The notes: a model not told the origin generated them from the sequence alone. Numbered from the stretch's first letter, positions 4,266 to 58,255 are shown. The stretch is 64,000 bases of DNA from Candidatus Magasanikbacteria bacterium GW2011_GWC2_37_14 (GCA_000990355.1 LBSX01000005.1:4584-68583); one strand, 5' to 3'. Translations and numbers: made by a program.

Positions 4266-4334
4266 TTGTCATGCTGAACTAGTTTCAGCATCTCTCCTAA
4301 ATTAAAAAGATCCTGAAATAAATTCAGGATGACA
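4266..4334. repeat. double-hairpin repeat GTCATGCTGAA..TTCAGCATCTC ... GATCCTGAAATAAATTCAGGATGAC (copy 1)
   Basis: near-identical copy at 9213-9268; both directly downstream of a stop codon. Confidence 0.65.
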
Positions 4335-4343
4335 GTAAAAATT

Positions 4344-9206: not shown

Positions 9207-9212
9207 CTGTCT

Positions 9213-9268
9213 GTCATGCTGAATTTATTTCAGCATCTCAGGGGATCCTGAAATAAATTCAGGATGAC
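9213..9268. repeat. double-hairpin repeat (copy 2 of 4266-4334 family)
   Basis: GTCATGCTGAATTTATTTCAGCATCTC ... GATCCTGAAATAAATTCAGGATGAC. Confidence 0.65.
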
Positions 9269-30110: not shown

Positions 30111-30147
30111 TGTTTGTCTCCTCTTAAGTTGTAAAAGAACATCGCAA

Positions 30148-30178
30148 ACAAAAAATCACCGACTTGGTGATTTTTTGT
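30148..30178 (-). promoter_or_regulatory. terminator-like hairpin in 5' leader (possible attenuator) of the 371-aa gene
   Basis: AAAAAATCACC-GACTT-GGTGATTTTTT flanked by A/T runs, 38 nt upstream of start codon; candidate promoter TTGACA-17-TAATGT about 200 nt upstream. Confidence 0.35.
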
Positions 30179-30349
30179 CCAAAATAGCAAAACAACAAAG
30201 TTAGTTGGCTACTTTGGACATATTTTGTGGTGGTTTAATTTTTGAGTGGTTTTTTGTTTCATATTCTTGTATCACTGTATTACTACATTAACACAAGAAA
30301 AAATTGTTGTCAAATAGGGGTGTGGATAAAAAGGTTGTTTTTTCACGTG

Positions 30350-30377
30350 GTAGAGACGCAAAATTTTGCGTCTCTAC
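30350..30377. repeat. REP: 28-bp perfect palindrome GTAGAGACGCAAAATTTTGCGTCTCTAC (copy 1, just downstream of RAYT stop)
   Basis: perfect palindrome with 5' GTAG; 3 copies in window. Confidence 0.8.
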
Positions 30378-30389
30378 AGTGAAACGTTA

Positions 30390-30956
30390 TTATACCAACA
30401 ATCCCTCAGGATTATTTCTATCACGGTCCCACATTGAGGGATTATTGAAAATATATTGTTGAATATTGTGTAGCGAAATTTCGTCACGAATGATGTGGTC
30501 GTAAAATCGTGCTTGCCAGATGAATGAGACGTTGTTTGTTGTAGCCCATTTTGATACACCAATTTTAAATCCGCGAATAATTGATGATAAATTTTTGGAT
30601 TGTGGGCCAAATTTATTGTGGTAAAGTTTGTCGTTGTCGTGTAGAGACGCAAAATTTTGCGTCTCTACAATTGGCGGATTGTTGTTAATTATAATAATTC
30701 CATGTACATGATTTGGCATTATCACAAATTCGTCTAATGTTACAAACGGAAAATGTTTTGGTATTTCCAACCAATATTTTGTGGCCATTTTTCCAATATC
30801 ATTCAAAACAATTTCATCACCAACTATTTCACCAAAATAACAGAATTTATTTTTGGTGCAAATAGTTATAAAATAATAACCCGTTTGGCTATAGTCATAT
30901 CCAGCCAAACGGGTTGAAGGTATTAAAAATTTATTTCTAAATAAATTGTCGGTCAT
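30390..30956 (-). CDS. REP-associated tyrosine transposase (RAYT; IS200/IS605 Y1 HuH family)
   Basis: RLAGYDYSQTGYYFITICTK N-motif, HVHGII HuH motif, WQARFYDHIIRDE...YIFNNP C-terminal Tyr motif; contains REP copy in frame. Confidence 0.8.
   Translation of the reverse strand: MTDNLFRNKFLIPSTRLAGYDYSQTGYYFITICTKNKFCYFGEIVGDEIVLNDIGKMATKYWLEIPKHFPFVTLDEFVIMPNHVHGIIIINNNPPIVETQNFASLHDNDKLYHNKFGPQSKNLSSIIRGFKIGVSKWATTNNVSFIWQARFYDHIIRDEISLHNIQQYIFNNPSMWDRDRNNPEGLLV
30641..30668. repeat. REP copy 2, in frame inside RAYT CDS (encodes VETQNFASL)
   Basis: identical 28-bp palindrome. Confidence 0.8.
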
Positions 30957-31234
30957 TTTCTCAAATTTTCCAAAGCTTTTTTGTAGCCATCTTCGCCATG
31001 TTCTAGCCAGTGAGCGATGCGGGTAATGGTTGTGGTAGAGAGTTTAGTAATCTTGGCAACTTCGCGATAAGTCTTGCCTTGGTTTAAAAGTAATACGGCT
31101 TGCCAACGATTAGACATTTCTTCCAATTCATCCAAGGTACAAAGATCGCGCAAAAAATTGGCAATGTCGTGTGGCGTTTTTAACACCGAAAAAGCTTTGG
31201 CTAGGTTTTTAAGTTTTTCATTTTTCCAATTCAT
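30953..31234 (-). CDS. TrpR-like (YerC/YecD family) HTH protein
   Basis: FLRDLCTLDELEEMSNRWQAVLLLNQGKTYREVAKITKLSTTTITR matches Trp-repressor-like fold; 4-nt overlap with RAYT gene. Confidence 0.7.
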   Translation of the reverse strand: MNWKNEKLKNLAKAFSVLKTPHDIANFLRDLCTLDELEEMSNRWQAVLLLNQGKTYREVAKITKLSTTTITRIAHWLEHGEDGYKKALENLRK

Positions 31235-35856: not shown

Positions 35857-35887
35857 AAAAAATCCTGATTAAAATCAGGATTTTTTA
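35857..35887. terminator. bidirectional terminator between convergent genes
   Basis: AAAAATCCTGATT-AAA-ATCAGGATTTTTT. Confidence 0.6.
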
Positions 35888-37101
35888 AATCTATAAATTT
35901 CTCGACCCAGATGTTGATTTGGTCGATGGTAGAGTAGAGACGCAAAATTTTGCGTCTCTACTCTAAATGGCATAATTTCAAAACCAATTTTTTTCAAATC
36001 TTTTTCCCAATTTATCGCTAACCAATCATTACCAATTTTAAATTTAGGGATAGCAATTACTATTACACCTTGTGGTTCCAGAATTTTGTAAAATTCTTGG
36101 CAAGCTTTTAAATAAAGACTTTTTAATTCAGTTAATTGTTTTTCTAATTGGTTTTTGTTTTCACGACCAGTTAAGGGTTTGCCCAGATAAGTCTCAGTAA
36201 CAATTAAAGTAACAGAATTGTTTTTTATTTTTTTAGTTAATTGAGTGGCGTCACTAATAATAAATTGGCAACCAATATTTTTAAGATTATATTTTTCTTT
36301 TAACCAAAGGAAATTTTTTTCACTGTCAACAACGGCTTTTTCCGAAATGTCAGCAGCAATTAAATTATTAAAATTCATGAGAGTGGCTTCATTTAATATT
36401 GTACCCGAGCCACAAAATGGGTCCAAGAGAATTTTGTTTTTAATCACCCCGGCGCCCTCGGCAACTCCCCCCGCCTGCCTTGACGGCATGTCGGGCAGGC
36501 CTGCCCCCTCTTGGTAAAAGGGGGATAAAGCGAGATTAATCATTATCTTGGCAAGCTTGGGCGGTAGCATGCCAGACAAGTCATCACTGTCTGGTCTTTG
36601 GTAGTCACGTTCAGCCATTTCTTCAAATGGCTGTAGAGCGGTCGTAACAAAAATTTGCTTATTGATTACTGTTAAATCCGATTTTTTCTCTACTAATTTG
36701 TTGTAAAGAATAGTAGCGGTATTTTTTGGCTCAATGTAGCGTACAGAATAACCGTTGGTTTTTAAAGCTTTTTTAAGTTCCAAAGCTAGTCTTTGATCAT
36801 TTAAAGAATATTCAATTTTACCAGTAGGGCAATTAGTTATTAAGTATTCTTGTAGGTGAGTTAACAACCCCCCTTCGCCCCCCTTTATTAAGGGGGGAAT
36901 TTCGGTAGCAATTTTTATAGTGCCACCCAGCTGTTTGATTAATTTTGCTGAATCTAGTTTTTTGTTGGTTTCAATTAATAAATATTGGTTGGAATTTTGT
37001 TTTAGGGTTTTAATATTTTTAAGTTTTAATGACGAAAAAACCGCCTGGATTTCGGCGGTGGAAATAAGAGGTTGGTGCCCTAATTGAAAAAGGAAATTCA
37101 T
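35875..37101 (-). CDS. UPF0020/THUMP-type RNA (guanine-N2) methyltransferase-like protein
   Basis: LDPFCGSGTILNEA SAM motif I; carries three in-frame repeat insertions (36447-36527, 36868-36897, REP at 35934-35961). Confidence 0.6.
   Translation of the reverse strand: MNFLFQLGHQPLISTAEIQAVFSSLKLKNIKTLKQNSNQYLLIETNKKLDSAKLIKQLGGTIKIATEIPPLIKGGEGGLLTHLQEYLITNCPTGKIEYSLNDQRLALELKKALKTNGYSVRYIEPKNTATILYNKLVEKKSDLTVINKQIFVTTALQPFEEMAERDYQRPDSDDLSGMLPPKLAKIMINLALSPFYQEGAGLPDMPSRQAGGVAEGAGVIKNKILLDPFCGSGTILNEATLMNFNNLIAADISEKAVVDSEKNFLWLKEKYNLKNIGCQFIISDATQLTKKIKNNSVTLIVTETYLGKPLTGRENKNQLEKQLTELKSLYLKACQEFYKILEPQGVIVIAIPKFKIGNDWLAINWEKDLKKIGFEIMPFRVETQNFASLLYHRPNQHLGREIYRFKKS
35934..35961. repeat. 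REP copy 3, forms in-frame 3' end of methyltransferase CDS (VETQNFASL...)
   Basis: identical 28-bp palindrome, extended palindrome TAGAGTAGAGACGC..GCGTCTCTACTCTA. Confidence 0.8.
36447..36527. repeat. GC-rich composite hairpin element, in frame in CDS (encodes ...QEGAGLPDMPSRQAGGVAEGAG...)
   Basis: about 47 bp (GGCCTGCCCGACATGCCGTCAAGGCAGGCGGGGGGAGTTGCCGAGG) shared in reverse orientation with 48451-48500. Confidence 0.7.
36868..36897. repeat. GC-rich hairpin CCCCCCTTTATTAAGGGGGG in frame in CDS (encodes IKGGEGGLL)
   Basis: perfect stem of 6-7 G:C pairs inside AT-rich coding sequence. Confidence 0.55.
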
Positions 37102-48279: not shown

Positions 48280-48300
48280 AGTTTATAAAGTCTATAAAGT

Positions 48301-48336
48301 AAAACCGTCCCGCAACCTGCGGGACGGTTTTTTTCT
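48301..48336 (+). terminator. rho-independent terminator after rpsR
   Basis: AAAACCGTCCCGC-AACC-TGCGGGACGGTTTTTTT. Confidence 0.7.
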
Positions 48337-48565
48337 CCCCCTACAAGGGGAGGATTACGAAATGTGTTTGTGTGCGCGTGAACGAGTGATTGAACGTCGT
48401 CGCTGTCCCCCTCTTTCCCAACCTGCCTGCCGGTAGGCAGGGAGGGGGTAGGCCTGCCCGACATGCCGTCAAGGCAGGCGGGGGGAGTTTGCCGAGGCTT
48501 GCACAAACTCCGGCAACTCCACCGTCCGCCCTGGGCGGGCACCTCCTCTTGGTAAGAGGAGGATT
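48336..48565. repeat. array of GC-rich hairpin modules (includes CTCCCCCTACAAGGGGAGGATTACGAA and the GGCCTGCCCGACATGCCGTCAAGGCAGGCGGGG module)
   Basis: modules shared with 36447-36527 (reverse orientation) and 57763-57790. Confidence 0.7.
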
Positions 48566-48600
48566 AAAAAACACTCCGCTAATTAGCAGAGTGTTTTATA
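48566..48600 (-). terminator. hairpin plus T-run, candidate terminator for minus-strand lipoprotein gene
   Basis: AAAACACTCCGC-TAATTA-GCAGAGTGTTTTAT. Confidence 0.35.
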
Positions 48601-48720
48601 TTAACCCTCGGTTCTCCACAACACACTTATCTAAATATAAATGTATTCTGGAGATCGGAACCGAGGGTTCAGTGCCGATCATCCTTGGGGGGTGGTCGGC
48701 CGGGAGTGGCCTGGTGGGGT

Positions 48721-49101
48721 TCAACGCCCGCAGTTGAAGAGCTTGTGACTGCAGTTGGGGGTGGGGTCGCAGACATCACCACTACCGTCCTTGTCGACGT
48801 CGGTCTGGTCCGAGTTTGGTTTCTCGGGGCAGTTGTCGCAGACGTCGCCCACACCGTCCTTGTCGAAGTCGCGTTGGTCGTGGTTGAAGGTCCGCACCAA
48901 TGGGCAGTTGTCGATGCGGTCGGGGATGTTGTCCCCATCCACGTCGGAGTTGCGTTCGGCTTCGGCGGCCGACTGCTTCTGTCCGGCCTGGTAGTCTTCC
49001 CAGGCCTTCTCTCTGTCGGACGCTGGCCCACGCATCATGAGGACACAGCCTGAGAGATTTAGCACCATCGCCCACAGGGCGATAAGGATCATGCGGTTCA
49101 T
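48721..49101 (-). CDS. lipoprotein with thrombospondin type-3 (calcium-binding) repeats, on high-GC islet
   Basis: lipobox LNLSGC, three DxDxDGxxDxxDNC TSP3 repeats; GC about 60%, GC3-rich codons. Confidence 0.6.
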
Positions 49102-56883: not shown

Positions 56884-57525
56884 CTACCGGAAGAGTACGC
56901 ACCGCGGGGGCACGATCAGGCTGGCGGGGTTGACACCGTCCCAGCTGATCAGTCCCTGGAGCACCATGTTTGTCATGTGCGACTGCCACGCCCGTTCGAC
57001 TTCGTTGACGCGCTTGGCCAAGGAGTCGGGGGTGTCGTCATCGCGGATCAAGACCGGGTAGTGGAAGAAGACCGGTCCTCGGTCGAATTCTTCGGTGACG
57101 AAGTGCATGCAGACCGCGCTGGCGGTCAGCTCGCCTTGGTGGAAGGTGGCCATCACGGCTTCGTGCACGTGGTGGCCGTACATGCCCGGACCGCCGTACT
57201 TGTACAACGGACCGGGGTGGATGTTGATGGTCTTCTTGGGGTCGAGACCCCTGACCAACTTCAGCCAGCCGGACAGCGCGACGAGGTCGGGCTGGAAGGC
57301 GTCGACGAGAAGCTGATATTGGTCTACCGACCAGGGTGCGGGCATGTGAACGAATTTGACGCCCAATTTTTCGGCGCGTCGTTCTACACCACCACCTCGC
57401 ACGTTGGAAACTACGGCCACGATGTCCGCCTGGAGAACTCCGGTGCGGGAATTCTCCACGAGTTCTTGGAAGCCAGAGCCTCCACCCTCCCTGGAACCCG
57501 AAGCGAATACGAGAATCCTTTTCAT
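56884..57525 (-). CDS. PurN-like formyltransferase (stand-alone formyl_trans_N domain, 213 aa) on high-GC islet
   Basis: MKRILVFASGS N-terminus, NIHPGPLYKYGG and HFVTEEFDRGPV motifs of GAR formyltransferase family; GC about 60%; start set at MKRIL (track ORF starts upstream). Confidence 0.7.
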   Translation of the reverse strand: MKRILVFASGSREGGGSGFQELVENSRTGVLQADIVAVVSNVRGGGVERRAEKLGVKFVHMPAPWSVDQYQLLVDAFQPDLVALSGWLKLVRGLDPKKTINIHPGPLYKYGGPGMYGHHVHEAVMATFHQGELTASAVCMHFVTEEFDRGPVFFHYPVLIRDDDTPDSLAKRVNEVERAWQSHMTNMVLQGLISWDGVNPASLIVPPRCVLFR

Positions 57526-57626
57526 GTCTGAGCCTTTCTGGTTGTTGTTCACCACTCCCAAAAATATTTTGTAAATAACTAAACTATTGGTTAGCTTAGC
57601 GCTAAATATGGGAATTGTCAATGGTA

Positions 57627-57790
57627 TTCCCCCTTAGAAAAGGGGGAATAAGGGGGTTGTTGGTAAACCCTCCCCTTGTAGGGGAGGTACCCCGAGTATA
57701 CGGGGTGGTGGGGTTCGTAGTTCTAACATGAACCCCCACCCTCCGACTGCGACGTCGGAGGACTCCCCCTACGAGGGGGAGGATTACGAA
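57627..57790. repeat. array of six consecutive GC-rich hairpins (TTCCCCCTTAGAAAAGGGGGAA, CCCTCCCCTTGTAGGGGAGG, CCCCGAGTATACGGGG, GGTGGGGGTTCG..GAACCCCCACC, CTCCGACTGCGACGTCGGAG, CTCCCCCTACGAGGGGGAGGATTACGAA)
   Basis: last module nearly identical to 48336-48362; CCCCGAG..CGGGG module matches 12646-12664. Confidence 0.7.
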
Positions 57791-57796
57791 CTTTTT

Positions 57797-58255
57797 TTAA
57801 ATAATAAACCTATATCGACATTTTTTTCTGTCGCCATTTAAGTACTGGTCATTGTGTTTTGGTAGATCAACAATTTCTATTAGTTTACCACCGGCCAATT
57901 CGCAAGTTTTTCTGGAAGCAAGATTGTTTGTATCGCAGGTTATATAAATTTCGTTTAAATTGTGTTTTTTGGCAAAAGGTAATAATAATTTAATACTTCT
58001 GGCTGCATAATGATGACCTCTAAATTTTTCTTTTACCCCATAACCAATATGTCCACCATAAAAAATATTTTCATTATTGCCAATTCTTAAGTGTATAAGA
58101 CCCATGCATTCACTGGTACTGGAGTTTTTCATTTCAAAATTATAGGCTGGAACATATTTTTTTTCTTCGTTTGCAGGAATTTTTTTTACCAATATTAACT
58201 CCAACTCATTATCAATTAGTTTACCAGGACTTAGGAATTTAAAAATATTTTTCAT
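57797..58255 (-). CDS. GNAT family N-acetyltransferase
   Basis: HIGYGVKEKFRGHHYAARSIKLLLPFA acetyltransferase core. Confidence 0.55.
   Translation of the reverse strand: MKNIFKFLSPGKLIDNELELILVKKIPANEEKKYVPAYNFEMKNSSTSECMGLIHLRIGNNENIFYGGHIGYGVKEKFRGHHYAARSIKLLLPFAKKHNLNEIYITCDTNNLASRKTCELAGGKLIEIVDLPKHNDQYLNGDRKKCRYRFII

Follow-up and report, generated by a model that had tools for sequence, protein, structure and literature searches.

The stretch of DNA analysed here (hereafter the window; 64,000 nucleotides, GC content of 36%) comes from Candidatus Magasanikbacteria bacterium GW2011_GWC2_37_14 and carries a REP-associated tyrosine transposase (RAYT, or TnpA_REP) gene together with three copies of a 28-nt perfect palindrome, GTAGAGACGCAAAATTTTGCGTCTCTAC, hereafter the REP (Table 1). 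The RAYT gene is present once in the window and forms the 3' end of a gene string, Polysacc_synt - Wzy_C - YerC-like. One REP lies just past the RAYT stop codon, one is embedded in the RAYT gene itself, and the third is located in a methyltransferase gene.

Table 1. Features of the RAYT/REP locus (positions counted from the first nucleotide of the window)
Feature	Position	Strand	Description
Terminator-like hairpin with T-run	30145-30181	-	~210 nt downstream of the RAYT stop
Extragenic REP	30350..30377	.	12 nt 3' of the RAYT stop; "double-foot," 5' GTAG and 3' CTAC
RAYT / TnpA_REP gene	30390..30956	-	188 aa, intact; TnpA_Y1 subclass 2.4 / Bertels group 4
Intragenic REP	30641..30668	.	Inside the RAYT gene, in frame within the HuH-Tyr linker; encodes V96-ETQNFAS-L
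TrpR-like (YerC/YecD) ORF	30953-31234		Upstream of the RAYT gene, 4-nt ATGA overlap; TIGR02531, 62.8 bits, above cutoff
SAM-dependent methyltransferase gene (UPF0020/Trm11-like)	35875-37101	-	Host of the third REP; Pfam PF01170, PF13847; 408 aa
Third REP	35934..35961	.	In frame in the Trm11-like methyltransferase gene; encodes VETQNFASL

The RAYT protein and its fold

The sequence-only reading of this DNA had recognized a minus-strand open reading frame (ORF) with RAYT sequence blocks, an HuH motif, and a Tyr block, and all of the quoted segments (RLAGYDYSQTGYYFITICTK, NHVHGII, WQARFYDHIIRDE, and YIFNNP) are indeed present in its product. The catalytic motifs are the HuH (N82-H83-V84-H85), W147-Q148, and the catalytic Y168 within YIFNNP, with a distance of 85 residues between H83 and Y168, and every family-invariant residue of a 38-sequence alignment is kept, including H83, H85, W147, Q148, Y168, N172, and P173. 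The product is 100% identical to the GW2011_GWC2 protein US42_C0005G0037. A check against PF01797 and TnpA_REP profiles, which had been proposed along with that reading, did return matches, but both fall below their thresholds: the best profile, NCBIfam NF047646 (REP_Tyr_transpos), scores 54.8 bits (E = 9e-15; cutoff, 80), and Pfam PF01797 (Y1_Tnp) scores 18.4 bits over the HuH half only (gathering threshold, 23). A precomputed PF01797 match is present in some close homologues. Judged by its sequence, the RAYT is related to the proteobacterial (E. coli-type) RayT and is not filed as its equivalog.

Homologues of the RAYT number 6383 proteins at E ≤ 1e-5, with hosts including Patescibacteria, Latescibacteria, Zixibacteria, Nitrospirae, and Flavobacteriaceae, among others. 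A RAYT/REP pair had been regarded as unusual in a CPR genome, which is not borne out by this family of more than 6000 members; seven of the named top matches belong to Patescibacteria, indicating that the system is common there.

In a direct sequence search of the PDB with the RAYT, the match to 4ER8 was so weak (E = 0.29) that a comparison of folds was needed. The AlphaFold2 model, built on the homologue alignment, has a mean pLDDT of 82.6 with core values above 90, while the linker at about residues 91 to 120, which includes the REP-encoded peptide and varies in length among homologues, has a pLDDT of 50 to 60 and is therefore modelled as a peripheral loop. The best Foldseek match of the model in the PDB is 4ER8_A (E = 5.1e-07; TM values of 0.53 and 0.60), on which it superimposes with a root mean square deviation of 2.5 Å over 150 columns; the next matches are the IS608, ISDra2, and IS200 transposases. 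In the weak sequence alignment with 4ER8, RAYT residues W147, Q148, D153, H154, and R157 are paired with E. coli W94, Q95, E100, H101, and R104, which are the contacts to the GTAG guide (Quentin et al. 2018, PMC6006769). With its motifs intact, 4ER8 as the best fold match, and REP_Tyr_transpos as the best (below-cutoff) profile, the proposal of a RAYT with a cognate GTAG REP is upheld.

Palindrome copies, their host genes, and the neighbourhood

All three copies occur with 0 mismatches where the sequence-only reading had placed them (30350, 30641, and 35934), and the palindrome was found 0 times in 100 dinucleotide-preserving shuffles of the window. Within the 64 kb, there are no further copies at up to 3 mismatches, no isolated half-sites or solitary arms of at least 9 nt, and no degenerate copies at up to 8 mismatches except one chance-level match. 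The three copies are all located within 5.6 kb of the RAYT gene, with none in the other ~58 kb, a clustering that has p ~0.02 under uniform placement. Such identical, clustered copies suggest recent, local activity or homogenization, and the presence of three copies in 64 kb indicates that the REP population may be very small.

Folded as single-stranded DNA (ssDNA), each copy forms a stem of 12 to 16 bp with a 4-nt loop (-12.8 to -16.9 kcal/mol, z of -6.3 to -11). The palindrome at the 30641 copy extends to 30 nt through a flanking T/A (30640-30669), and that in the methyltransferase gene reaches 36 nt (35930-35965), equal to 12 codons, by 4 bp more on each side (TAGA…TCTA). Of the three, the 30350 copy alone lies between genes. 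It had been described as lying beyond the RAYT stop, which holds, at a distance of 13 bp, which has to be corrected to 12 nt. REPs flank the gene on this downstream side only; there is none upstream, where the RAYT start overlaps the stop of the preceding ORF and so leaves no place for a REP or left-end hairpin. The other two copies are in frame inside coding sequence. Because the element is a perfect palindrome, its phases are equal on both strands: one reads VETQNFASL, one reads RDAKFCVST, and one contains a stop (TAG), so that two of the three phases are open. The in-frame intragenic REP, which the earlier reading overlooked, is the most distinctive feature of the locus and has been published for its subclass (PMC6006769).

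The methyltransferase that hosts the third REP is longer than its closest homologues (about 375 aa). An alignment with 14 homologues places the REP peptide in a short variable surface loop just before an invariant LLYHR block, and this loop is lengthened by 4 to 5 residues in the window's protein only. The right 4-bp extension of the 35930-35965 palindrome overlaps the conserved LLY codons; the extension may be the footprint of a target site or a junction, or due to chance. A separate 24-residue insertion, PFYQEGAGLPDMPSRQAGGVAEGAG, is likewise absent from all 14 homologues. Unrelated to the REP, a GC-rich 48-nt repeat, AACTCCCCCCGCCTGCCTTGACGGCATGTCGGGCAGGCCTGCCCCCTC, occurs at 36463-36510 and, inverted and 98% identical, at 48442-48489. 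Its methyltransferase copy encodes, in frame, the insertion just described (about 24 aa, …EGAGLPDMPSRQAGGV…), and its second copy is intergenic, in a GC-rich stretch of about 440 nt (48280-48720) that lies downstream of an S18-like ORF and has no Rfam match.

Several further features of the window were observed. A small minus-strand ORF at 48721-49101 has tandem Asp-rich repeats (48757-48879), which may resemble thrombospondin type-3 calcium-binding repeats, and is situated in a GC-rich kilobase (50% versus 36% for the window); this region may be foreign DNA. A second GC peak, at 57001-58000 (0.508 in a window otherwise at 30 to 40% GC), contains no Rfam family at gathering score. Another short hairpin repeat, AGATCCTGAAATAAATTCAGGATGACAG-like and distinct from the REP, is found at 4308-4335 and, inverted, at 9211-9238, with 93% complementarity. 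Across the whole window, Rfam reports three tRNAs only, and none of its families falls at the REPs or the GC-rich stretches.

The 4-nt overlap (ATGA) between the RAYT gene and the TrpR-like gene is real, but the latter does not hold up as a meaningful partner. A phmmer search against the six-frame ORFs of 200 loci with the palindrome or a RAYT homologue, among which 58 RAYT loci include at least 500 nt upstream, gave 0 YerC-like homologues; we therefore rejected the YerC-like gene as a conserved RAYT partner and regard the pairing as local. The downstream REP was also considered as a terminator and rejected, since it lacks a T-tract and the terminator scan calls the other hairpin listed in Table 1, which probably marks where transcription of the Polysacc_synt - Wzy_C - YerC-like - RAYT unit truly ends.

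The linker hairpin in homologues and the REP core in other genomes

VETQNFASL or a near variant occupies one alignment position in nearly all of 38 homologues from several phyla, and several of the aligned proteins have 2 to 5 tandem copies of this type of peptide. We selected 80 metagenomic loci by the protein motifs MPNHxHGI and SIIRGFKIG alone, which avoids selection on the palindrome. The linker could be delimited with an HMM and loose anchors in 60 of them, the second anchor being absent in the other 20, and a perfect linker hairpin of at least 8 bp was present in 48 of these 60 mapped genes, usually with GTAG...CTAC feet. The stems vary by sub-lineage with compensation in both arms, as in GAGACGCAA/TTGCGTCTC, GGGGCGAAA/TTTCGCCCC, GAGACGTTGCA/TGCAACGTCTC, GGGGTTCAA/TTGAACCCC, GGGGCACGGCA/TGCCGTGCCCC, and GAGACAGGTTT/AAACCTGTCTC, among others. 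Sub-clades with very different linker peptides still have perfect GTAG...CTAC palindromes, and related genes can translate a given element in different frames (VETLHATSL versus RDVACNVST); the homologue P0085 likewise uses the other open frame, giving RDAKSCVST.

Synonymous recoding, which needs no anchors and was applied to all 80 loci, separates the hairpin from the peptide. The longest perfect stem in the 50 codons that follow the HuH has a median length of 13 bp; the corresponding value is 5.35 bp when these peptides are recoded with codon-usage weighting and 5 bp for the 50 codons that precede the HuH. The observed stem exceeds all 100 recodings in 54 of the 80 loci. In the 12 genes encoding ETQ[ND]xAS, each position of the REP uses one single codon in 12 of 12, whereas at each position of the catalytic motifs PNHxHGI, IIRGFKIG, and WQxRFYDH of the same genes, which are conserved to an equal degree, 2 to 4 codons are in use and the majority codon accounts for 62 to 71%. 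The constraint on the linker hairpin acts at the nucleotide level.

Stem type also follows protein relationship: after masking of the linker, the nearest protein neighbour shares the stem type in 30 of 59 cases (9.9 expected; maximum of 17 in 1000 randomizations). External copies in the homologue loci are of the internal type, loop included, and often stand 1 to 60 nt upstream and 2 to 19 nt downstream of the genes, comparable to the 30350 copy of the window. The co-occurrence of the palindrome with RAYT homologues is supported in this way, as unrelated metagenomic loci have palindromes of the same class within the gene as well as beside it. None of the outcomes that the sequence-only reading had named as refuting it was observed. 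Tandem arrays of 3 to 6 full or partial REP units were seen inside or just upstream of the linker in the RAYT homologues P0052, P0116, L134, L135, L142, L152, L154, and L180; examples are ETQNIVETQNIVETQNFVETQNIVETQNIASL and a fivefold repeat of DVETRNFT. Such arrays lead to highly variable linker lengths, which makes the linker a dynamic site of REP landing or duplication.

A scan for the core GAGACGCAANNNNTTGCGTCTC with one genome per species gave at least 120 stretches. Among the matches listed, hosts include Bacteroidota, Chloroflexota, Planctomycetota, Myxococcota, Desulfobacterota, Gammaproteobacteria, Victivallales, and Patescibacteria (Gracilibacteria, Parcubacteria), as well as others; 146 of the 152 REP copies in these listed matches reside in 8-kb pieces that lack a RAYT homologue, and most of the 152 retain GTAG and CTAC feet with variable loops. 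Largely away from any RAYT homologue and with its feet kept, the core behaves like a mobile element dispersed as a REP, not like a segment of a gene. In Bacteroidota and Planctomycetota, it is often arranged in close pairs or arrays 40 to 120 nt apart with one GTAG/CTAC foot per unit (for instance, GTAG…GTCGTT followed by AACGAC…CTAC), resembling REPIN/BIME dimers, as opposed to the solitary double-foot units of the window; such dimers were found at loci L005, L011, L014, L015, L018, L027, L058, L063, L099, L112, L114, L117, and L120.

Interpretation of the locus

The locus is very probably a REPtron in which a RAYT of TnpA_Y1 subclass 2.4 / group 4 is paired with its cognate REP. The analysis shows the features of the sequence, the family motifs, the fold, a linker hairpin conserved at the nucleotide level, and REP types that co-vary with RAYT clade, and the find is an intact, ordinary representative of a published class in an arrangement already described. 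The system would consist of a single-copy gene for a putative HuH/Tyr ssDNA endonuclease-ligase and a double-foot REP with a 12-bp stem, a 4-nt loop, and a GTAG foot on either strand. If it works like E. coli TnpA_REP and IS608 TnpA, this protein would recognize the REP hairpin formed on ssDNA, such as the lagging-strand template, and would read the GTAG foot through its conserved W-Q...D-H..R block; cleavage and rejoining beside the foot may then move or copy REPs. The RAYT would be catalytically active in this reading, and its REPs may currently be mobile. The intragenic copies are presumably tolerated because two of the three frames are open and their sites are variable, probably disordered loops.

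Three other explanations of the locus have to be weighed. VETQNFASL might be a conserved functional peptide, with the palindrome as a by-product of its codons and the other copies coincidental or derived from the gene, and its near invariance at one position in 38 homologues from several phyla would fit this. We consider this highly improbable and rejected the peptide as a protein motif on the basis of the codon analysis, the alternative frames, and the dispersed nongenic copies: synonymous sites are fixed in the REP codons while the catalytic motifs of the same genes vary, recoded peptides form stems of about 5 bp against the 13 bp observed, RDAKSCVST in P0085 and RDVACNVST versus VETLHATSL show that other frames are used, sub-clades with quite different peptides preserve perfect GTAG...CTAC palindromes, and 146 of the 152 listed copies are in stretches that lack a RAYT homologue. 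The segment is, moreover, modelled at low confidence. A literature search for ETQNFASL, DAKFCVST, and other such peptides found no mention of them. The palindromes might instead be regulatory hairpins unrelated to the transposase, serving as a terminator or as an operator for the TrpR/YerC-like protein, as a perfect palindrome 12 nt past the stop and an HTH gene overlapping the RAYT start by 4 nt could suggest; yet two of the three copies are inside coding sequence, the REP has no T-tract, the terminator-like site of the operon is the other hairpin (30181-30145), and a YerC-like homologue accompanies the palindrome or a RAYT homologue in 0 of 200 loci; this explanation, too, is highly improbable.

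It is somewhat less far-fetched, but still improbable, that the gene and its flanking hairpins constitute an autonomous, self-copying insertion sequence of the IS200/IS605 type instead of a single-copy RAYT acting on REPs in trans. The fold is common to the IS608 and ISDra2 TnpA proteins, the patchy distribution across phyla with the same REP core suggests horizontal transfer, and the flanking-16-mer abundance of group 4 is low, at about 14 (Bertels, Gallie & Rainey 2017, PMC5581495). Against it, the motifs are NHVH/WQ/YIFNNP and not the DH[VI]H / W[TS] / Y[IV]ENQ of subclass 1.1, the window holds one copy of the gene with no adjacent tnpB-like ORF, a left-end hairpin is absent where the start codon overlaps the stop of the upstream ORF, and the hairpins are identical symmetric palindromes and not distinct left and right ends. 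The 146 of 152 listed REPs in 8-kb stretches lacking a RAYT homologue also count against it.

Within the preferred REPtron reading, the REP inside the RAYT gene could itself be selected, as a heritable seed or master copy and/or as a cis hairpin for self-regulation. Selection of this kind would explain why a perfect hairpin is kept at one linker in most family members, why synonymous sites are frozen, and why one and the same REP core is found with the family in at least 8 phyla, and, if the seed reading were true, joint transfer and inheritance of enzyme and substrate would be guaranteed. We nevertheless hold this to be rather unlikely: reading frames vary and tandem arrays occur, which favours a simpler view in which REPs of the local pool have entered the linker again and again as a neutral hotspot. 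The wider question of why RAYT genes of this subclass nearly always harbour their substrate was raised in 2018 and is not specific to the window.

For the genome at hand, the REPtron reading means that a subclass 2.4 RAYT/REP system, in-frame REP included, is intact in a reduced CPR genome, and that short REPs can lengthen housekeeping proteins in such a genome. For annotation, VETQNFASL/RDAKFCVST-like peptides in Patescibacteria, Bacteroidota, and other proteins are to be taken as footprints of mobile palindromes and not as protein motifs.

Comparison with known systems

IS200/IS605 TnpA proteins such as those of IS608 and ISDra2 share with the RAYT the HuH/Y1 fold and, by analogy, probably the hairpin-guided ssDNA chemistry. 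The motifs of their subclass 1.1 and its distinct subterminal left and right hairpins are not found in the window, where the element has neither tnpB nor distinct ends and is not multi-copy in the 64 kb.

E. coli TnpA_REP/RayT, characterized with its REP-BIME (PDB 4ER8; Messing et al. 2012, PMC3479197), is closer. It is the best structural match, and the two enzymes share the HuH/Tyr core, the WQ..(E/D)H..R guide-recognition block, a GTAG at the hairpin foot, and a REP adjoining the gene. However, they have only 19% identity, and E. coli TnpA_REP is a member of subclass 2.2 (DHLH, WE, YIHYNP) whose gene contains no REP. Unlike the REPs of the window, those of E. coli are imperfect and asymmetric (only one end has a GTAG), and they run to hundreds of copies.

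In-frame REPs have also been reported in unrelated housekeeping genes (Di Nocera et al. 2013, PMC3733652). Similar to the methyltransferase copy, those elements, along with the Rickettsia palindromic elements, lengthen their host proteins, by between a few and about 30 residues, where insertions are tolerated, but the published list centres on Proteobacteria, Opitutus, and Rickettsia, whereas the window has another REP family and another host gene.

The published class to which the locus corresponds is TnpA_Y1 subclass 2.4 (Quentin, Siguier, Chandler & Fichant 2018, BMC Genomics 19:475, PMC6006769), equivalent to Bertels group 4. Subclass 2.4 proteins have the motifs NH[IFV]H, WQ, and YIxNNP (Table 1 of that paper), a mean length of 194 aa, and an enlarged and variable HuH-Y spacing with a median of 88 aa that results from an insertion between beta3 and alphaC; their REPs are of the "double foot" type with 5' GT[AG]G and 3' C[TC]AC, and in-frame REPs inside tnpAREP between HuH and Y are described as "a remarkable and unique feature" (PMC6006769). 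The RAYT of the window agrees with all of these points, having NHVH (residues 82 to 85), W147-Q148, Y168-IFNNP, a spacing of 85 residues, a variable linker, an in-frame REP between HuH and Y, a downstream double-foot REP, and, in the model, a TnpA_REP-like fold. Group 4 RAYTs are distributed over 61 species in 17 classes (PMC5581495), and their low flanking-16-mer abundance is compatible with the few copies in the window. There are two differences: the host belongs to Patescibacteria, a group not named in those papers, which used earlier complete genomes, and the RAYT of the window has no upstream flanking REP. Relative to Quentin et al. (2018), the nucleotide-level test, the co-variation of clade and stem, and the finding of a single, identical REP core in many phyla appear to be modest extensions. 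In its length of about 190 aa, its low REP copy number, and its patchy spread over many phyla, the system agrees with subclass 2.4 / group 4.
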